Part shown: piece after piece, positions 1-8,115 of the stretch
Position numbering within the stretch: position 1 is the first letter of the stretch
How the letters are laid out: each line of letters opens with the position of its first letter
Source: Marinococcus luteus
Lineage (GTDB): Bacteria > Bacillota > Bacilli > Bacillales > Marinococcaceae
Length of the DNA stretch: 32,000 nt
Reading direction: 5' to 3'
Assembly (NCBI RefSeq): GCF_034497705.1
Contig: NZ_JAXRUV010000004.1
Coordinates: 138,958 to 170,957 of the forward strand
Program-made: the position numbers and the translations under genes
Notes under the pieces: generated by a model
Told to the model about the DNA's origin: nothing
Database searches by the model: none
The model's input: the letters and a program-made list of their open reading frames with translations, nothing else

Positions 1-1
1 T

Positions 2-184
2 GAAGATATGGGCCTCCACCGGATTGAAGCCCGGTGTTTTACCGAAAATACAGCATCCGCCAAGGTGATGGAAAAGGTCGGCATGGTGCATGAAGGCACA
101 CTGCGCCGCTCGCTGTTGATTCAAGGGGTACGGCGGGATGTGATGATTTACGCTATTTTAAAAACAGAATGGAAAAGCTATTAA
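2..184 (+). CDS. GNAT family N-acetyltransferase, C-terminal fragment (5' end lies outside the window)
   Basis: The frame is open from the window edge to TAA at 182-184. The translation EDMGLHRIEARCFTENTASAKVMEKVGMVHEGTLRRSLLIQGVRRDVMIYAILKTEWKSY looks like the C-terminal part of RimJ/RimL-type acetyltransferases. A hairpin terminator follows immediately. Confidence 0.6.
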   Translation, partial: EDMGLHRIEARCFTENTASAKVMEKVGMVHEGTLRRSLLIQGVRRDVMIYAILKTEWKSY

Positions 185-213
185 AAAAACAGCCGACAAT
201 GCGGCTGTTTTTT
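183..213. terminator. Bidirectional rho-independent terminator shared by the convergent GNAT fragment and dagK
   Basis: A 7-bp stem pairs ACAGCCG (189-195) with CGGCTGT (202-208) around a 6-nt loop. It is flanked by an A-run (183-189) and a T-run (208-213). The dagK stop codon at 212-214 abuts it. Confidence 0.65.
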
Positions 214-1099
214 ATGGGCAGAACAGTTCGATATGCTGGTACAAATTTTCAAACGTCGCCGGCAGATGGCCGCCGTATTCCCCGTCAAGATTCAGCTGCA
301 TGTCTTCTTTAGCCTCTATACGCAGCTGTTTTGCTTTAAAGTATTTAATTTTAGGATTTTCCAGATGCCTTCCTCGCAAAGCCTGACGTAGCAGCTGGCT
401 GAATTCAAACATCGTCATTTTCTGTACAATCAGCACATCAAAATAACCGTCATTGTACTCTGCCTGGGGAAGAAGTTTTTCAAAACCACCGACGGAGTTA
501 GTGTTGGATACGAGAAACATTGTAATTTCTTCCTCGAGAAGCTTTCCATCGTATTCAACAGTGGCCATCTGCGGATGCAGGGACCAGAATTTTTCAAACC
601 CTTTAATGAAATAGGCGGCCTGCCCCAGTGCCGTTTTCAGCCCTTTCGGGGTGTCATAGGTAAGCTCCGTCAGCTTCCCTCCCGCAGCAATATTAATAAA
701 GTACGATCCGTTCGCCTTTCCTATATCAATGACCTGGGTGCGTCCGCGCGCAAATACGTCGCAGACCTCTTTAATTTCTTTTCCCTGCAGTCCGAGAGCC
801 CGGGCAAAATCATTCGTCGTTCCGGCAGGGATAAGTCCTACTCTGGGGCGCCACTCCTGTTCAGCGATCCCATTAATGACCTCAAAAATAGTTCCATCTC
901 CACCTGCGGCAATTACGGCTTCGAACCCATCCTTTGAGGCGCGCCGTGCCTCCTCCCGGGCGTCCCCCTCCCCACGGGTCATAAAGGCCGACGTTTCGTA
1001 ACCTGCCTGCTCCATCCGGTCTAATATATAAGGCACCTGCCGCTCCATCTGCTCTCTTCCAGACGTTGGATTGTAAATTACTCTCGCTCGTTTTCGCAT
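212..1099 (-). CDS. dagK: Diacylglycerol kinase (DagK/YerQ family lipid kinase)
   Basis: 295 aa. The N-terminus MRKRARVIYNPTSGRE and the GGDGT motif (AAGGDGTIFEVING) are typical of the DagK/LCB5 kinase family. Its position relative to gatCAB matches B. subtilis yerQ. Confidence 0.9.
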   Translation of the reverse strand: MRKRARVIYNPTSGREQMERQVPYILDRMEQAGYETSAFMTRGEGDAREEARRASKDGFEAVIAAGGDGTIFEVINGIAEQEWRPRVGLIPAGTTNDFARALGLQGKEIKEVCDVFARGRTQVIDIGKANGSYFINIAAGGKLTELTYDTPKGLKTALGQAAYFIKGFEKFWSLHPQMATVEYDGKLLEEEITMFLVSNTNSVGGFEKLLPQAEYNDGYFDVLIVQKMTMFEFSQLLRQALRGRHLENPKIKYFKAKQLRIEAKEDMQLNLDGEYGGHLPATFENLYQHIELFCP

Positions 1100-1215
1100 A
1101 TTATAACCCCTATTACATCGAAGATTTCAATTCATTTGGCTAATATATAAAAGAACTATCTTTGTCTCTCATTGTTACATGCGTTACTAATTAATTGTAT
1201 ACTATTGTTAATTCA

Positions 1216-2151
1216 TTAAACAGTAGCAGCTGTGGGGTCGATATTTTTTGGCTTAAAATTGGAATATTGCGCAAAGGTAGCCCTTTGAAATCGCAGGTAA
1301 TTTTCTTCTATAAAATCATAAAACATCTTTTGCCCTTTATCTTTCAGGATAAACATAGCTTTTTCCATAGATCGTAAAGCGTTCGCGTATTCGCCCATAT
1401 AAAATAAAGCTACACCCTTTTGGTAATAAAGTTCACCTAACAGATACACTGATTCTATGTCGTATATATATTTTACTCCTTCATTTGCGACTTCCAGGCT
1501 TTTTTCAAACTGCATGGCTTTGGAGTATACAATGCACAAATTCATATAAATTTTTGTTTTGGAAGTATCCCATTGCGCTACAGGAAGTTTTGTATAAAGA
1601 GCAAGAGCCTCATTAAAATAATAAATGGCGTCTTTATACTCGTTCATATCCATATATACTGTACCAATATTTATATATATACCAATATCTTCTTCTGTAA
1701 TGCTTAAAGAACCTGTATCCACATCCAGGGCCAACTGTAATAATTCCAGGGATTCTTCTTTTTCAAGTGTTAATTTAGAGTGGCAGGCGGCTCTTTTCCA
1801 TAACAAAAATTTAAGATGGACAGGCTTTCGAAATAGTGGATTTTTTAATTCTTGTCTAATGATTTTCATTGCTTCTTCTAATTCATATATACGTACCAGT
1901 TTATCAATTTTATCCTTAGTCTCCTGTATATAGTTAAATCGTGGAGCTTCATGATCTTCAAAAAAATAACTAATCTTCACTCCTAGTTTTATTGCCATTT
2001 GATGGAGTATATCTGCGGTCGGCTGTATTTCTCCCCGTTCAATTTTGGAGACAGCTCTTTGAGAACAAATACTTTCAGCTAGTTCTCTTTGACTTACTTC
2101 GTAGTACTGTCTTAAATCTTTTAATTTTTTCCCGACATTTGAATCTTCCAT
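1216..2151 (-). CDS. XRE-family HTH transcriptional regulator with C-terminal TPR-like peptide-sensor domain (RNPP / Rgg / PlcR-like)
   Basis: 311 aa. The N-terminal segment VGKKLKDLRQYYEVSQRELAESICSQRAVSKIERGEIQPTADILHQMAIKLGVKISYFF is a canonical Cro/C1-XRE HTH. The remainder is helical-repeat-like with TPR-style pairs (EYKDAIYYFNEALALY, MQFEKSLEVANEGVKY, GEYANALRSMEKAM). The size is comparable to PlcR and Rgg. The SD AAAGGTGG lies 4-5 nt before the ATG. Confidence 0.8.
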   Translation of the reverse strand: MEDSNVGKKLKDLRQYYEVSQRELAESICSQRAVSKIERGEIQPTADILHQMAIKLGVKISYFFEDHEAPRFNYIQETKDKIDKLVRIYELEEAMKIIRQELKNPLFRKPVHLKFLLWKRAACHSKLTLEKEESLELLQLALDVDTGSLSITEEDIGIYINIGTVYMDMNEYKDAIYYFNEALALYTKLPVAQWDTSKTKIYMNLCIVYSKAMQFEKSLEVANEGVKYIYDIESVYLLGELYYQKGVALFYMGEYANALRSMEKAMFILKDKGQKMFYDFIEENYLRFQRATFAQYSNFKPKNIDPTAATV

Positions 2152-2165
2152 ACAACCACCTTTTA

Positions 2166-2179
2166 AGAACTATAGTTCT
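2166..2179. promoter_or_regulatory. Perfect 14-bp palindrome AGAACTATAGTTCT between the predicted regulator promoter and its SD (candidate operator or 5'-UTR hairpin)
   Basis: Read directly from the sequence. It is self-complementary over all 14 nt and lies 15-28 nt upstream of the regulator ATG (2151). Confidence 0.4.
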
Positions 2180-2190
2180 AGTCACTTTAG

Positions 2191-2199
2191 ATTTTACCA
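2191..2199 (-). promoter_or_regulatory. Candidate extended -10 promoter (TGgTAAAAT) for the regulator gene
   Basis: The minus strand reads TGGTAAAAT. There is no good -35. A start site here would place the 14-bp palindrome just downstream of it. Confidence 0.3.
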
Positions 2200-2267
2200 C
2201 AATTCTAGAGCTTTCACCTAATTATTGGGCAATGAATGCATTAGAAGCCCAAAGATATTTATATACG

Positions 2268-2287
2268 TATATGTCATAATGCATATA
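2268..2287. promoter_or_regulatory. Inverted repeat TATATG-N8-CATATA (PlcR-box-like spacing) upstream of the mini-ORF
   Basis: The 6-bp arms are perfectly complementary. The inner 16 nt TATGTCATAATGCATA match 9 of the 10 specified positions of the recalled PlcR box TATGNAN4TNCATA. The repeat ends 3 nt before a -10-like AATAAT (2291-2296). It overlaps a second palindrome, ATATACGTATAT (2261-2272). Confidence 0.35.
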
Positions 2288-2327
2288 GAAAATAATTACA
2301 AAGTTTCTTGTAGGAGGGTTGTTTTCA

Positions 2328-2432
2328 GTGAAAGCTAATTTGATTAAATTGACTGTAGCTATAGGGTTAGTAACAACGGCTGGTGCTGCTGGCGATTTCC
2401 AGTTACTAGTTAACTTGCCGGGAATAATGTAA
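2328..2432 (+). CDS. Unannotated 34-aa ORF: putative secreted signalling pro-peptide MKANLIKLTVAIGLVTTAGAAGDFQLLVNLPGIM
   Basis: GTG start at 2328, preceded by AGGAGG(G) at 2312-2318 with a 9-10 nt spacer. TAA stop at 2430-2432. It is divergent from the XRE-TPR regulator and followed by its own terminator. It is too short to appear in the supplied ORF track. Confidence 0.55.
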   Translation: MKANLIKLTVAIGLVTTAGAAGDFQLLVNLPGIM

Positions 2433-2514
2433 TTATTTTTAAATAATTGTAAACCGTCACCCTCGACACACGTTTCACACCATTAACCAAGCTTACCCCT
2501 GTTATATTTTTTGT

Positions 2515-2551
2515 ATCCCTTGCAGTTTAGCTGGCAGGGGATTCTTTTTTT
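2515..2551 (+). terminator. Rho-independent terminator downstream of the mini-ORF
   Basis: A 9-bp stem pairs ATCCCTTGC (2515-2523) with GCAGGGGAT (2534-2542), including one G.U pair on the plus-strand RNA. The loop is 10 nt, followed by TTC and T7 (2545-2551). Confidence 0.65.
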
Positions 2552-2591
2552 ACTTACTTTCCAAACATTTATCTACATAGGAGGAGTGGCC

Positions 2592-2903
2592 ATGCATCCG
2601 GATCAATACATTGCTTACTTTGTAGATCAGTTTTTGTACCAGCTGGATCGTGCGGACGACCCGGCCGAGCTCTGCAAGCTCCGCGATCAGGTGTTTGAAC
2701 AAGTCGCCCTTATCGGCGCCCGTATCCCTTATATTGAAATGATGGGCGCCATCTGGCACAAACACCCTGCCATCCTTCAGGAAGCACTCGAGAAAGAGCC
2801 TGTCTGTTATGGTCTTTTAGTTGATACGTTTCAGTACATTTCTTCGAATCAGTTTGTGTATATGCGCTGGCGGCTGAACGAATGGGCCAGGCTTTCTGCG
2901 TGA
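2592..2903 (+). CDS. Hypothetical protein (103 aa, predicted helical, no family recognised)
   Basis: ATG at 2592 is preceded by TAGGAGGAGTGG. The longer ORF-track start (2511) would run through the terminator hairpin. Composition is close to the core genes. Translation begins MHPDQYIAYFVDQFLYQLDRADDPAEL. Confidence 0.6.
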   Translation: MHPDQYIAYFVDQFLYQLDRADDPAELCKLRDQVFEQVALIGARIPYIEMMGAIWHKHPAILQEALEKEPVCYGLLVDTFQYISSNQFVYMRWRLNEWARLSA

Positions 2904-2943
2904 ACAGAAAATAGGTTATATTCGGCAAAATATCGGGAAAATA

Positions 2944-2968
2944 CCCTCCACCTATAGTTTACGGAGGG
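2944..2968 (+). promoter_or_regulatory. Hairpin pairing CCCTCC (2944-2949) with the GNAT Shine-Dalgarno GGAGGG (2963-2968)
   Basis: A 6-bp all-GC/AT stem with a 13-nt loop. The 3' arm is the only SD for the ATG at 2977. No T-tract follows, so it is not a terminator. Confidence 0.3.
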
Positions 2969-2976
2969 GATAAAAA

Positions 2977-3564
2977 ATGGCTGATTTTACCGTGGATTCC
3001 CAGATATACCTTCGCCCGTTTAAAGATAAGGACGCTGCCGATTATCTGCAGCTGGTGGAGGATAATCGTTCATACCTGCGTCATTGGCTTCCCTGGGTGG
3101 ATAAGACACGCGAGCTGCGTGACGTACTCCGTTTTTTTGAATACCGGGCCAAGCTTGCCCGCCGCGGCACCTCTTACACGTTTGGTATCTGGTACGAAGG
3201 CAGGCTCGCCGGTGCGATCAGCTTCAACCATGTGTACCGACTGACCCGGCGCACCGTTATTGGCTACTGGCTCGCCGCCCCCTTTCAGGGCAAAGGCATT
3301 ATGACCCGGGCGGTACAGACATTGACTGATTATGCCTTTCGGGATATTCATCTTAGGCGTGTGGATATTTGCGTTGCTCCGGATAATCGGCCCAGCCGTT
3401 CAATTCCGGAACGGCTCGGCTTTGAAAAATATAAGTATGTGCGTAATGCCGAATGGCTGTACGACCATTATGTCGATCACGTTGTCTATACGATGCGTTC
3501 GCGCTTCTGGCTGCCAGCTATTCTTGGTCCCGGCATGGAGCATACAAAAACCCCGCAGTTTTAA
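2977..3564 (+). CDS. GNAT N-acetyltransferase, RimJ/RimL (ribosomal-protein-serine acetyltransferase-like) family
   Basis: 195 aa. The YLRPFKDKDAADYLQLV opening, the WLPW motif, and the acetyl-CoA motif A region WLAAPFQGKGIMTRAVQTLTDYAF are typical of Acetyltransf_3-type GNATs. Confidence 0.85.
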   Translation: MADFTVDSQIYLRPFKDKDAADYLQLVEDNRSYLRHWLPWVDKTRELRDVLRFFEYRAKLARRGTSYTFGIWYEGRLAGAISFNHVYRLTRRTVIGYWLAAPFQGKGIMTRAVQTLTDYAFRDIHLRRVDICVAPDNRPSRSIPERLGFEKYKYVRNAEWLYDHYVDHVVYTMRSRFWLPAILGPGMEHTKTPQF

Positions 3565-3579
3565 CGCTGCGGGGTTTTT
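3546..3579. terminator. Bidirectional rho-independent terminator between the convergent GNAT and gatB
   Basis: An 8-bp GC-rich stem pairs CCCCGCAG (3551-3558) with CTGCGGGG (3567-3574). A5 lies upstream and T5 downstream. The GNAT stop codon sits in the loop. Confidence 0.8.
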
Positions 3580-3583
3580 CGTA

Positions 3584-5020
3584 TTAGCGCTGTTCCATGC
3601 CTTTAAGAATTAAAGAGTTTACCATCTGAGGGTTGGCTTTCCCTTTCGTTTCCTTCATCACCTGGCCGACTAGGAAGCCGAGCGCTTTGTCTTTTCCATT
3701 TTTGTAGTCTTCGATCGATTGCGGGTTATTGTCCAATATGCCGTCAACTACCTGCTTAAGCTCTCCTTCATCAGAGATCTGCATAAGTCCTTTATCTTTT
3801 ACGATCTGCTCCGGATCGCCGCCCTGCTCCATTACATCTGCAAAAACCTGCTTCGCAATTTTGCTTGAAATAGTGCCTTTTTCAATGAGTTCAATCAGCT
3901 TGGCAAGCGACTCCGGCGTGAGAGCCGTCTCGTCGATATCCATATCGTTGTTGTTTAAATAGCCGCTTACCTCGCCCATCAGCCAGTTGGCTGTAAGCTT
4001 GCTGTCCGCTCCGGCATCAACAGTTTCCTGGAAAAAGTCTGCGATTGCCTTGGACTGCACCAATACCGAGGCGTCGTATTCGGAAAGTTCGAAGTCCTCG
4101 ATATAACGCTTCTTCCGTGCATCCGGAAGTTCCGGAATGGAAGACATGATCCGTGATTTCCAGTCTTCGTCGATATAGTACGTGACCAGGTCCGGTTCCG
4201 GGAAGTAGCGGTAATCGTCCGAGCCTTCTTTGATACGCATCAGAATTGTTTCTTTTTTCGCGTCATCCCACCGGCGCGTTTCCTGCAGTACTTCCCCGCC
4301 CGAAAGCAGTTCTTTTTCCTGACGTTCTTCTTCAAATGCCAGTCCTTTTTGCACATTCGTAAATGAGTTCAAGTTTTTCAGCTCAGTTTTCGTGCCAAAT
4401 TCCTCCTGGCCTGCCGGACGGATGGAAATGTTCGCATCACAACGGAGCGACCCTTCTTCCATTTTGCAGTCGGAAACGTCAGTATACTGCAGAATCGCTT
4501 TTAGTTTTTCCAAATAAGCGTAGCCTTCCTCGGGAGTCGTAATATCCGGCTCTGACACAATTTCAATCAGCGGTGTGCCAACACGGTTAAAGTCAACCAG
4601 AGAGTGGCCTCCGTCTTCGTCGTGCGTGAGTTTTCCGGCATCTTCTTCCATATGAATGCGGGTAATACCTATACGCTTCGGTCCGTTTTCTTCTGTTTCA
4701 ATGTCAATCCACCCGTTTTCTCCAATTGGCTGGTCAAACTGGGAAATTTGATAAGCCTTTGGATTGTCGGGATAAAAGTAGTTTTTCCGGTCGAATTTCG
4801 TTTCTGGGGCAATCTCGCAGTTCATTGCAAGCGCTGCTTTCATGGCATAGTTGACCGCCTGCTCATTCAAAACCGGAAGCACTCCCGGATGGCCCAGGCA
4901 GACCGGGCACGTATGCGTATTCGGAGGAGCACCAAATTCGGTTGAGCAGTTGCAGAAAATCTTTGTATTTGTTTTTAACTCTGCATGGACTTCGAGTCCA
5001 ATGATTGTTTCAAAGTTCAT
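3584..5020 (-). CDS. gatB: Asp-tRNA(Asn)/Glu-tRNA(Gln) amidotransferase subunit B
   Basis: The start is set at [17 protein letters not shown] (ATG at 5020), with SD GGGGAGGAA 8 nt upstream. The ORF-track extension to 5116 overlaps gatA. The sequence is characteristic of GatB throughout. Confidence 0.95.
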
Positions 5021-5036
5021 GGTCCTGGTTCCTCCC

Positions 5037-6494
5037 CTATAATTCCGGTCTGGCTTTATGGTGTTCAGTTGCCTGTTCAAAGGCGTGGGCAACTGTATAG
5101 ATCGTTTCTTCAGCAAATGGCTTGGCTATAATCTGCAGACCGACCGGCATATTGTCCGAGAAGCCGCACGGCACGGAAATCGCCGGAATACCAGCCAGGT
5201 TTACCGGAATGGTTAGAATGTCGTTGGCGTACATCGTGAGCGGGTCATCAAGCTGCTCCCCGAGCTTAAACGCAGTGGTCGGTGCTGTCGGTCCGACGAT
5301 GACGTCATAGTCGGCAAACACCTTTTCGAAGTCCCGGCGGATCAGCGTCCGCACCTGCTGGGCCTTCTTGTAATAAGCATCGTAATATCCGGCGCTCAAA
5401 GCAAAGGTTCCAAGCATAATCCGACGCTTCACTTCTTCGCCGAATCCTTTGCTGCGGGTTTCTTTGTACATTTCCACCAGATCCTTCGCGTTTTCATCGC
5501 GAACACCGTAGCGGACACCGTCAAAGCGGGCCAGGTTGGCTGAAGCCTCTGAAGAAGCAATTAAATAATATGCAGCGACTGCGTATTTTGAATGAGGAAG
5601 GGAAACTTCTTCCCACACTGCCCCCTGGCCCTCCAGTACCTTCAGTGCTTCAAGCACCCGCTGTTTAACGCCTTCATCCACGCCTTCCCCGATGTATTCG
5701 GCCGGCACACCAATTTTCAGGCCTTTAACATCTTTGCCGAGTGCTTCCAGATAATTTGGTACCTGTACATCTGCGGAGGTCGAATCGTTTTCCGAATGAC
5801 CGGCAATCTGCTGCAGGACGTAAGCATTATCTTCAACCGAACGGGTAAGCGGTCCGATCTGATCCAGGGAAGAAGCAAAAGCCACAAGACCGTACCGTGA
5901 TACGCGTCCGTAGGTAGGCTTTAAGCCAACAACTCCACAGTAGGAGGCAGGCTGGCGAATGGAGCCTCCTGTATCAGAACCTAACGAAAACAGCACTTCG
6001 CCGGCTGCCACTGAGGCTGCCGAACCGCCGCTTGAACCCCCTGGAACATACTCGGTGTTCCACGGGTTTCTCGTTTCCTGCACGCCGGAGTTTTCCGTTG
6101 AGGAACCCATGGCGAATTCGTCCATGTTCAGCTTCCCGACGGTTACCGTTTCTGCCTCGTCCAGTTTATCCATCACAGTCGCGTTATGGACCGGATCGAA
6201 ATTTGCAAGCAGCTGGCTCGCGCAGGTGGTCCGCAGATCCTGGGTGATAATATTATCTTTAATACCTGCCGGCATGCCGAACAAAAACGGCACCTCGCCG
6301 CCGTTTTGAATCTGCTTATCAAGCTTTGCAGCCTGCTCGAGGGCCCGGTCTTCGTTCAACGTTAAAAACGCTTTTACATCTGTATCTACTTCGCGAATAC
6401 GGGCAAATGAAGCTTCCACCAGCTCGGCGACAGTTACTTCCTGGTTTTTTATTTTCGTATGTAACGACGCTACACTTTCTTCCAAAATGGACAT
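5037..6494 (-). CDS. gatA: Glu-tRNA(Gln) amidotransferase subunit A
   Basis: 485 aa. It has the amidase signature region [14 protein letters not shown] and the [12 protein letters not shown] motif. It lies between gatC and gatB. Confidence 0.95.
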
Positions 6495-6511
6495 ACGTTA
6501 TCTCCCTTCTT

Positions 6512-6802
6512 TTACTCCAGCACGGATGGTACTTTCACCTGGCCGTCTTTTTGGTCCGGAGCATTTTTTAATGCTTCCTCCCGGTCAAGCGATGGTTGAA
6601 TGGTATCTTCACGCAGTACGTTGTGAATATCGAGTACGTGGGATGTCGGCTCCACTTCAGTCGTATCAAGTTCATCGAGCTGTTCAGCAAATCCAATGAT
6701 CGCATCAAGCTCTGCGGTCAGCTTCTCTAAATCTTCATCGGACACGGAGAGGCGAGCCAAATGGGCTACGTGCTCCACGTCTTCTTTCGAAATATGTGCC
6801 AT
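6512..6802 (-). CDS. gatC: Glu-tRNA(Gln) amidotransferase subunit C
   Basis: 96 aa. The opening [42 protein letters not shown] is typical of GatC. It is the first gene of gatCAB. Confidence 0.95.
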
Positions 6803-6856
6803 CAGTTTTTCCTCCTTTAAGTGCTTCCATCTTTCTTCTATCGTGACAATACTCTG

Positions 6857-6865
6857 ATCATATCA
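6857..6865 (-). promoter_or_regulatory. Candidate extended -10 promoter TGATATGAT for gatCAB
   Basis: The minus strand reads TTTGATATGATCAG, about 55 nt upstream of the gatC ATG and directly after the camS terminator T-tract. Confidence 0.35.
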
Positions 6866-6901
6866 AAGAAAAAGGAAAGCGGGCAACTGTGCCCACTTCC
6901 C
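6865..6901 (-). terminator. Rho-independent terminator of camS
   Basis: Minus-strand RNA reads GGGAAGUGGGCA-CAGU-UGCCCGCUUUCC, a 12-bp stem with two G.U pairs, then UUUUUCUUU. The wobble pairs become C.A mismatches on the plus strand, which supports the minus orientation. Confidence 0.75.
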
Positions 6902-6912
6902 GCGCTCACAAA

Positions 6913-8115
6913 TTACTCATTGTATACGTGAACGTACATATCCTCTCCCGGCTCTTTCGTAATTAACGCTTCCTGGCCAGCAGAGGAATTAATATTCACT
7001 TCAACTTCAAGGCCGTTCGGAAAAATGTCTTCCACATTATCCGCCACGTGCTGGGTGAAGGCGACGATTTCTGTTTTACTATAGAATTGAATAGGAATAT
7101 CAATCGTCAGGCTGTCAAGTTCACCGTTGACGTAATGACCTTCTCCAACTACACCGACTGTATTGTCAAAAAAGCTGTTCACTTCATTACTAAACTCATC
7201 GAACATTTCAGAATCCGAACGGTTATTTTCTTCTGCTTCCGAAGACGGGAACAGATAGTTCGATTCATTTAACTCGTTCCAGCTTCCAGGCTCCTGCCCC
7301 GGCTCAGCCATACCAGTTGCAATAAACGTTCCCGGCACGCTCGAATCTCTTGGAGCCTCCTGGAAGACGGTAAACATAATCGGCACTTCTTCAATGCGGT
7401 CTGAATTCTCACGTTCATCGTCCCGCAGACGCTCCGTGATTTTCCCTGCAATACGCTGGGCGTCCTCAAGAGCATTCTCTTCACTAATGGACTCCTCGAG
7501 CCACGGGCCGTAGGTACCGTCCTCATTTTCTTCGCGGAAGTAATATGTTTCATTCATCGAAAGCCCGATGACAATGCCGCCCAGTTCAAGACCGCCGCTT
7601 CCCTCTTCCATATAGTTATGTTCAAGCAGGTTGGACATTGTTCTCGGTGCACCGCGTTCACGCTCCTCAAACCCGTCTCCTTCACTGCCGGCAAGCGGTG
7701 GGTTCAGCCCTTTCGGCCTCGTCGTTGGTTCCCCGTCGCCTTCTTCGCCTTCCCGGAGCAGCCAGTTATTTAACTCACTGCGTTCAATAACCTGGCCTTC
7801 CCGGAAATAATAATCATCCTGACTGAACTCTTCCGAAGCAAGCTCCTGCATGCCTATTTCCATCCGCTCAAGGTCAAAGCGATTATAAACAACGGAATTA
7901 CTGAGTCCCCGGGATTCACCCGTGACGTACTGGCCATCGTCAGTGAGTACCGCCCGGTAGTACTCATCCAGGCTTGGAATGCCAGCACTCAGCGACAACT
8001 CTTCTTCTGATTCCGGCTGAGAGTCCTCTGATTCTGATTCATCCCCGCCAAACAACCCGCATCCTGATAATGCAAACACGGAAGCAGCTATAACAAGGCC
8101 GGCTCTTTTCCGCAT
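6913..8115 (-). CDS. camS: CamS family sex-pheromone-biosynthesis lipoprotein (YerH homologue)
   Basis: 400 aa. The lipoprotein signal peptide is MRKRAGLVIAASVFALSG|C, with lipobox LSGC. An acidic linker precedes the conserved CamS body. Its position between ligA and gatC matches B. subtilis yerH. Confidence 0.8.
   Translation of the reverse strand: MRKRAGLVIAASVFALSGCGLFGGDESESEDSQPESEEELSLSAGIPSLDEYYRAVLTDDGQYVTGESRGLSNSVVYNRFDLERMEIGMQELASEEFSQDDYYFREGQVIERSELNNWLLREGEEGDGEPTTRPKGLNPPLAGSEGDGFEERERGAPRTMSNLLEHNYMEEGSGGLELGGIVIGLSMNETYYFREENEDGTYGPWLEESISEENALEDAQRIAGKITERLRDDERENSDRIEEVPIMFTVFQEAPRDSSVPGTFIATGMAEPGQEPGSWNELNESNYLFPSSEAEENNRSDSEMFDEFSNEVNSFFDNTVGVVGEGHYVNGELDSLTIDIPIQFYSKTEIVAFTQHVADNVEDIFPNGLEVEVNINSSAGQEALITKEPGEDMYVHVYNE

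Follow-up and report, generated by a model that had tools for sequence, protein, structure and literature searches.

An AT-rich islet at 1100–2551 bp of a 32,000-nt stretch of Marinococcus luteus DNA (this whole stretch is called the window, and coordinates are positions in it unless another locus is named) was analyzed together with seven orthologous loci (L001–L007), which with the window make up the 8 loci referred to throughout. The islet carries two genes on opposite strands, one encoding a 311-aa regulator (1216–2151, minus strand) and the other a short open reading frame (sORF) of 34 codons (2328–2432, plus strand), whose start lies 176 bp from that of the regulator. The sORF is followed by a conserved noncoding block and an intrinsic terminator, beyond which the gene of a 103-aa orphan protein, orf103 (2592–2903, plus strand), is located, and every orthologous locus has a homologue of orf103 in this position, directly past the terminator. 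The conserved unit consists of three genes: the regulator, the pro-peptide, and the orphan behind a conserved terminator. The original prediction had read the divergent regulator and mini-peptide genes as an uncharacterized RNPP cassette, and every sequence feature on which it was built (regulator, mini-peptide ORF, Shine–Dalgarno sequence, terminator) was found where it had been placed. The cassette reading gained support from the RNPP_C domain and the fold matches of the regulator, from the conservation of the sORF and from the co-variation of its C-terminus with the regulator. The islet is likely to be a chromosomal cassette for peptide quorum sensing of the PlcR/PapR type (RNPP), whose regulator and peptide form a functional signalling pair.

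The regulator and the divergent peptide gene

The regulator is composed of an XRE-type helix-turn-helix (HTH) domain (approximately aa 6–63), a TPR-like peptide-binding domain (approximately aa 74–295), and a disordered tail (aa 296–311), and its length lies inside the 250–500 aa range of RNPP receptors. In the Pfam search, HTH_3 matched residues 10–63 with 39.8 bits (cut-off 23), where the AlphaFold2 (AF2) model has helices at residues 6–63, and RNPP_C matched residues 82–283 with 41.9 bits (gathering cut-off 26.5), accompanied by TPR_1, TPR_2, and TPR_12, while Rgg_C reached only 16.3 bits, under its cut-off of 27. The NCBIfam search returned HTH-level matches only, and TIGR01716 was absent from them. 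When the protein was compared with the sequences of the Protein Data Bank (PDB) by phmmer, the top match was PlcR (2qfc_A, E 2.5e-14), which covered regulator residues 3–267. The AF2 model, obtained with an 18-sequence alignment, was all-helical with a mean predicted local distance difference test score (pLDDT) of 83.9, and PlcR led again when this model was searched with Foldseek (3u3w_A, E 6e-11, 24% identity; then 2qfc and 4fsc). Among the top 35 Foldseek matches, PlcR was followed by ComR, Rgg2, and PrgX, the last with a template modelling (TM) score of ~0.41. Judged by its sequence profiles and predicted fold, the regulator is an RNPP receptor whose nearest characterized relative is PlcR, at ~24% identity. 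The predicted combination of an HTH with a TPR/RNPP-type C-terminal domain was upheld by both the RNPP_C profile and the model, but the Rgg-type label originally attached to the protein has to be replaced by PlcR-type, as Rgg_C stayed below its cut-off and PlcR was the best match in sequence as well as in fold.

A genome scan with the regulator identified 61 loci, the best of which belongs to M. luteus DSM 23126 (95% identity). Homologues at 46–93% identity came from Marinococcus, Alteribacillus, and Sinobaca, and those below 36% from assorted Bacillaceae; the host is Marinococcus (luteus-like) and not, as had been presumed, Bacillus. The Marinococcus proteins share a C-terminal tail of 12–16 residues, F-x-P-x-x-IDPTAATV (residues 296–311, encoded at 1216–1263), which is missing from the other genera. 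This tail was considered as a functional motif and rejected as more likely a by-product, since the model shows it disordered and its codons overlap DNA upstream of dagK that is conserved solely within Marinococcus. The DNA under the tail, upstream of dagK (1100–1263 region), is 89–97% identical within the genus, and the tail is probably constrained by the dagK promoter DNA and not by protein function.

The sORF starts with GTG at 2328 and its product is MKANLIKLTVAIGLVTTAGAAGDFQLLVNLPGIM. The automatic ORF call placed the start at TTG 2319 (2319–2432); the Shine–Dalgarno (SD) sequence AGGAGG, which can be read on the plus strand at 2312–2317, 10 nt ahead of the GTG, suits GTG 2328 instead. In 8/8 loci the sORF is divergent, has 34–36 codons and a strong SD, and lies at equal distance from the regulator; it is unannotated in most sources and appears as 'hypothetical' in Sinobaca. 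Between Marinococcus species, the DNA of the sORF is no more than 45–57% identical, and the persistence of its frame, length, and motif at this level of divergence is strong evidence that it is coding. Five residues, M1, G22, D23, V28, and P31, are invariant across the 8 loci. By inspection, the N-terminus has K/R at one or two early positions, a hydrophobic core of 14–16 residues, and small residues at −3/−1, and an [AST]-x-G/D junction (the slash marking the predicted cut) is present in all 8 products, as A-A-G/D in the window peptide. Residues 1–22 resemble a signal peptide that signal peptidase I is predicted to cut after G22, and the C-terminal 12-mer that would remain after this cut is DFQLLVNLPGIM.

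The active form of PapR in B. cereus is the heptapeptide PapR7, ADLPFEF (PMC2441798), and the last seven residues of the window peptide, VNLPGIM (codons at 2409–2429, plus strand), share its register, position −4 being Pro and position −5 hydrophobic, which makes VNLPGIM the predicted mature heptapeptide. The consensus V-x-[LF]-P-[GH]-x-x-COOH holds in 8/8 sORFs: position −7 is always V, position −4 always P, and position −5 hydrophobic. The peptides of Marinococcus end in VNLPGIM, VNLPGVA, or VHLPGAA (LPG class), and those of Alteribacillus and Sinobaca in VSFPHVY, VSLPHAY, VTLPHAY, or VTLPHIH (LPH class). Both expectations derived from the proposed pairing were borne out by these comparisons: the seven orthologous loci kept the divergent sORF in position, strand, length, SD, and C-terminal motif, and the C-terminus shifts from the LPG to the LPH class in step with the regulator clade.

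For the receptor side of this co-variation, positions were mapped through the PlcR alignment onto the published PlcR–PapR contacts K87, K89, K204, Y207, Q237, Q241, Y275, and A278. At the positions aligned to K87, K89, and Y207 of PlcR, the Marinococcus receptors, which accompany LPG peptides, carry R87, Y89, and a small side chain at 210; in receptors of the LPH class, position 87 is S/T/H, position 89 W/T, and position 210 F/Y. Q244, the equivalent of PlcR Q241 that contacts the peptide backbone, is conserved. At the position of PlcR Q237, the binder of the PapR glutamate, stands E240, a replacement that fits the peptides found here because they are without Glu. The substitutions between regulators concentrate in the TPR domain. 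The aligned residues fit a PlcR-like binding mode with a different peptide code.

Intergenic elements and the 3′ part of the peptide transcript

Alignment of the 176-bp spacer from the 8 loci revealed a palindrome and two −10-like elements in an otherwise unconserved sequence. The palindrome, AGAACTATAGTTCT (2166–2179), is perfect over 14 bp and represents a candidate operator for the HTH dimer. It is conserved as AGWACTATAGTWCT, with ≤1 mismatch and in the same place, in 7/7 orthologous loci and absent from the distant ones. The 32-kb window contains a single exact copy, and the search for further copies in it gave only 3-mismatch matches at chance frequency. A half-palindrome, ATAGTTCT, can be seen at 1152–1165; it has 3 mismatches to the full site, which is no more than chance.

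The predicted extended −10 element of the regulator, TGGTAAAAT, is on the minus strand at 2191–2199, and TG followed by a −10-like hexamer was found in 8/8 loci (in two of them by eye). The predicted extended −10 of the sORF, TGTCATAAT, is on the plus strand at 2273–2281, with the pattern TGTnAnAAT invariant in the 8 loci, and the sORF transcript is likely to start at 2287, an A that is likewise invariant. The distance from the palindrome center to the sORF −10 is 101–102 bp in 8/8 loci, and the two −10 elements are separated by exactly 78 bp in each of the six loci for which the pattern search returned the two of them. Counted from the predicted start of the regulator transcript, the palindrome would lie at approximately +5 to +18, a repressor-type position that suggests autorepression. 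By this placement, and by analogy with what was reported for TprA2, the regulator probably represses its own gene through the palindrome.

An enumerative search for 10–14-mers in seven sequences found no motif common to both promoters above the shuffled controls. In the PrgX/PrgQ system of pCF10, a strong palindromic operator is situated ~100 bp from the peptide promoter, and a second, weak operator acting with looping in the PrgX style is possible at the sORF promoter. The PlcR-box-like sequence TATATG-N8-CATATA at 2268–2287 was also considered as an operator and rejected, as the orthologues keep only its left part, that is, the extended −10. When the PlcR box itself (TATGNAN4TNCATA) was compared, 15/16 positions matched at 2270–2285, and the right half was again not conserved in the orthologues.

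Downstream of the sORF, the RNAalifold consensus of the 8 loci contains an intrinsic terminator on the plus strand (2515–2551), which consists of a 9-bp stem (2515–2523/2534–2542), a 10-nt loop, and a U-tract. The simple terminator scan missed this hairpin, but it is kept in 8/8 loci with compensatory change in two stem pairs, and the proposal that the sORF has a terminator of its own is confirmed by the folded hairpin and the T-run to 2551. The ~100 nt between the sORF stop and the terminator end are the best-conserved DNA of the region, with 94–96% identity between Marinococcus species, and they include the noncoding block at 2446–2514 (plus strand). A core of this block, TTyACACCAyyAACCAAGCT(T)ACCCC at 2474–2501, followed by a U-run and the terminator, is kept in the three genera; the stretch is C-rich, predicted to be single-stranded, and lies just ahead of the U-run and the terminator. 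The search of 2100–2700 against Rfam found no credible family. A covariance model of the 3′ element, run on 60 sources, scored 65–97 bits in the 8 loci from which it was built (a match by construction) and ≤21 bits elsewhere, and the weak matches outside the 8 loci were terminator-like. Exact-pattern matches to the core in metagenomes (70) were dismissed as chance, since none of them encodes a homologue of the regulator, DagK, GatB, or orf103. In the distant locus L011, the 3′ region has CCUUACCCCU as a terminator arm, which resembles the conserved core of the window.

At its predicted 5′-end (2289–2300), the sORF mRNA is complementary to its own stop-codon region (2428–2439) at 12/12 positions. 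Equivalent 5′–3′ pairings formed by different sequences were detected in L001, L002, L003, L006, and L007, where they ranked 0–9 of ~254 natural control windows, and the pairing was absent in L004 and L005. In L002 and L007 it takes in the SD and the Pro codon. Folding of the whole sORF transcript gave z = −1.3, that is, no unusual stability.

The third gene, orf103, has its own strong SD and starts 40 nt past the terminator. A promoter would not fit into this gap, so that expression of the gene probably depends on transcripts that start at the sORF promoter and read through the terminator. Its product is 79–84% identical within Marinococcus and 28–36% between genera, and 100% identical to an M. 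luteus entry. The family is clade-restricted, with 4 representative clusters among 1.8 billion proteins, and no match was obtained in Pfam, NCBIfam, PDB, or Foldseek. The AF2 model (pLDDT 93.1) has six helices. The G+C content of the gene is host-like (0.50; 0.57 at third codon positions, GC3).

Conservation of the locus and alternative explanations

The islet is flanked by dagK (212–1099; diacylglycerol kinase, NF009874, 438 bits) on one side and, beyond orf103, by a gene for a GNAT acetyltransferase (2977–3564) followed by gatB on the other. The regulator stop is 116 bp from the dagK start, with no sORF within. The window opens inside another GNAT-type acetyltransferase gene (8–184, plus strand), which stands beside dagK in all orthologous loci, and between ~3600 and 32000 the minus strand carries most of the other large ORFs. 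G+C content is 33.5% across 1100–2551 and 50.5% in the remaining window, with values of 0.285–0.39 in 200-nt segments of the islet; the drop from surroundings of ~50% G+C had been described correctly, but its level had been put too low, at 25–30%, compared with the measured ~33%.

The original prediction explained this islet as a recent lineage-specific insertion. The composition speaks for a horizontal origin, as the regulator has ~34% G+C in a 50% G+C genome and a GC3 of 0.28, compared with 0.52 in dagK, and distant homologues occur on a plasmid of Alkalihalophilus pseudofirmus OF4. However, the three-gene cassette occupies the same dagK–gatB interval in Marinococcus, Alteribacillus, and Sinobaca alike, and this synteny largely refutes a recent arrival. 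The marks of a mobile element are also missing, as the original prediction had itself observed: no tRNA was found in 1–8000, no convincing direct or inverted repeats flank the locus, and no integrase is present. The regulator gene has 30–34% G+C in every host, where dagK has 42–51%, and because this holds whatever the host, the AT-richness is a maintained property and not the mark of a recent arrival; the G+C of orf103, in turn, is host-like. We therefore consider a recent insertion very unlikely.

Comparison of Marinococcus species showed that DagK, GatB, and the GNAT protein are 92–97% identical, while the regulator is 65–67% and the sORF ≤50% identical. Along the DNA, identity falls from 0.84–0.98 to 0.45–0.69 at ~1250 and returns to 0.92–0.96 at ~2451, with sharp borders. 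The pattern of divergence, bounded in this way, resembles that of pherotype loci, and the sequence comparisons indicate that the islet is a fast-evolving resident and not a new insertion. Allele replacement between the conserved borders, which is distinct from a new insertion, is possible.

The conservation of the 3′ block raises the question of whether the sORF transcript is mainly an RNA device, either a dual-function RNA with a small RNA (sRNA) seed or an attenuator gating read-through to orf103, with the peptide in a secondary role. The 94–96% identity of 2446–2551 where the sORF has only 45–57%, the C-rich, predicted single-stranded core kept over three genera, the start of orf103 only 40 nt past the terminator without promoter space in all loci, and the pairing of the 5′-end with the stop region in 6/8 loci despite their differing sequences are all in line with such a role. 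In pCF10, a terminator just past the peptide gene of the PrgX/PrgQ system gates the downstream genes. Nevertheless, no Rfam match, target, or alternative antiterminator structure was identified, the transcription start is a predicted one, the pairing is absent in L004 and L005 and the transcript as a whole is not unusually stable (z = −1.3), while the 3′ conservation may also reflect a recombination anchor or termination efficiency. We regard the RNA-device explanation as doubtful, although it can coexist with quorum sensing. A combination of the two, in which the 3′ stretch, the terminator, and the co-varying 5′–3′ helix would form an sRNA/attenuator module linking PlcR-type signalling to orf103, and the regulator and peptide would be an exchangeable hypervariable 'pherotype' cassette between conserved borders, appears rather unlikely as a whole.

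The same long-range 5′–3′ pairing and strongly conserved 3′ UTR are reminiscent of type I toxin mRNAs, and the 34-aa product with its one hydrophobic helix could be taken for a toxin-like membrane peptide of this type or another non-signalling (bacteriocin-like) peptide, the XRE-TPR protein being merely its regulator or unrelated to it. Weak promoter-like hexamers on the opposite strand (2460–2424) might provide the antisense transcript, but they occur at the frequency of shuffled sequences and are not conserved beyond Marinococcus. Moreover, the sORF strictly co-occurs with the RNPP receptor, its conservation is in the C-terminal tail and not in the hydrophobic helix, the G-D junction resembles a signal-peptidase site, and the PapR-like C-terminal register is common to sORFs beside distant homologues. 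Consequently, a toxin or other non-signalling peptide is highly improbable.

Several points weigh against the quorum-sensing cassette as well. The co-variation of receptor and peptide is confounded with phylogeny, as it comes from ~6 independent lineages, and the signal-peptide status of the sORF product was assigned by inspection. Direct activation of the peptide gene is unsupported, because the palindrome is located ~100 bp upstream of the sORF −10 and the two promoters share no motif. Finally, the details of PlcR cannot be transferred to the regulator, as neither the Glu-binding lysines nor the PlcR box are conserved.

Proposed mechanism and relation to known systems

According to the PlcR/PapR-type reading, which we prefer, transcription of the sORF would be driven by its extended −10 promoter, and translation from GTG 2328 would yield a pre-pro-peptide of 34 aa, which would be exported by the Sec pathway and cut after A-A-G22, releasing DFQLLVNLPGIM. 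This product would probably be trimmed extracellularly to the C-terminal heptapeptide VNLPGIM, which at high cell density could be re-imported via an oligopeptide permease and bind to the concave TPR face of the regulator, altering its oligomeric state or DNA binding. The HTH dimer most likely recognizes the palindrome that closely follows the predicted promoter of the regulator gene, with autorepression as the probable outcome, and the regulator may act directly or indirectly on the peptide operon, whose likely local outputs are the peptide gene and orf103.

The similarity to PlcR/PapR extends from the sequence and fold of the receptor, with its HTH and five-TPR-like architecture, to the pro-peptide, which by inspection resembles a Sec-type one and has a heptapeptide with the same hydrophobic −5/Pro −4 register (VNLPGIM vs ADLPFEF). 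Conservation also covers the LLGxLYYQxG motif with its backbone-binding Gln, and the specificity region is hypervariable between species in a pherotype-like manner. The differences are also considerable. The identity of the receptors is only ~24%, and the residues K87, K89, and Q237 of PlcR are replaced by R87, Y89, and E240, while the peptide is without Glu and Phe. papR is downstream of and co-directional with plcR, whereas the peptide gene described here is upstream and divergent. The conserved palindrome is not a PlcR box and its placement suggests autorepression instead of autoactivation. The host is a non-pathogenic halophile, and the local output is a 103-aa orphan.

The divergent layout had been regarded as atypical, but within the same PlcR subfamily the TprA2/PhrA2 system of S. 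pneumoniae has divergent genes ~190 bp apart and co-directional targets downstream of the peptide gene; TprA2 is a repressor of both its own gene and the peptide operon, and repression is lifted by the peptide (PMC5436883). With its divergent pair (176 vs ~190 bp) and the co-directional orf103 downstream, the cassette is comparable with TprA/PhrA and TprA2/PhrA2, and TprA2/PhrA2 is the closest known system in layout and, by analogy, probably also in logic. However, the PhrA peptides (e.g., VDLGLAD) do not have the Pro register, and in these systems lantibiotic/ABC genes take the place of the orphan helical protein as outputs. Divergent regulator/peptide pairs are also the rule in groups I and II of Rgg/SHP (PMC13361665). 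Both Rgg/SHP and PrgX/PrgQ share the divergent arrangement and the common RNPP fold with the cassette, but SHPs are shorter and exported by PptAB and not by Sec, and Rgg_C is below its cut-off here (16.3 vs 27 bits). In the case of PrgX, the fold match is weaker (TM ~0.41), and no overlapping antisense transcription is evident at this locus.

Beside distant homologues of the regulator, the sORFs are convergent (DEDLPYCH), co-directional (GIPSEH repeats), or divergent (L008, L011, L033, L034, L039, and L042), which also argues against treating divergence as exceptional, and Pro at −4 with a hydrophobic residue at −5 recurs in the two well-populated classes DEDLPYCH and GIPSEH. In Cytobacillus firmus and its relatives, the PlcR-like homologue is followed co-directionally by a secreted pro-peptide of 61–76 aa with 3–4 tandem GIPSEH units, each after a similar spacer (plus strand; L040:6912–7127, L041:6914–7144, L043:6914–7144, L046:3834–4049, and L056:6924–7109); tandemly duplicated pheromone precursors of this kind have been discussed (PMC11343458). 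In Guptibacillus, Pseudalkalibacillus, and others, the downstream sORF (43–45 aa) is convergent and has DEDLPYCH or DEDLPWCH at its end, where the register is PapR-like and includes a Cys (minus strand; L014:7066–7203, L016:7163–7294, L020:7067–7204, L022:7064–7201, L023/L024:7070–7207, L036:7069–7203, and L053:7067–7204). Three of the distant divergent, signal-peptide-like sORFs, all on the minus strand, end in ...LPYEHHGSPNEYL (L008:5681–5821), ...ELPPVYKMSNVVEL (L011:5659–5787), and ...EDEPGPRH (L042:5655–5795). In L008 the sORF and a terminator are followed by a gene for a subtilisin-like protease.

Large-scale surveys have already reported many RRNPP clusters in several gene orientations, and thousands have been predicted computationally (PMC10075063); Marinococcus, Alteribacillus, and Sinobaca do not occur in the supplementary text of RRNPP_detector that was searched. 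The cassette is a previously undescribed relative of the PlcR/PapR system within a well-populated family, and it does not overturn the current understanding of such systems. What it offers beyond another RRNPP system is a bounded, fast-evolving module with a 3′ RNA block, a 5′–3′ helix, a fixed promoter geometry, and a co-inherited orphan. The conserved 3′ RNA block and the promoter geometry provide leads on the wiring of such cassettes, and receptor, pro-peptide, and orphan output together make a compact, testable three-gene model. The rapid divergence of receptor and peptide inside sharp conserved borders, at a fixed site of the core genome, represents a clean natural case for the diversification of specificity. 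At the level of the family, the cassette would extend PlcR-type signalling to the halophilic, non-pathogenic Bacillaceae Marinococcus, Alteribacillus, and Sinobaca, with the new peptide code V-x-[LF]-P-[GH]-x-x.

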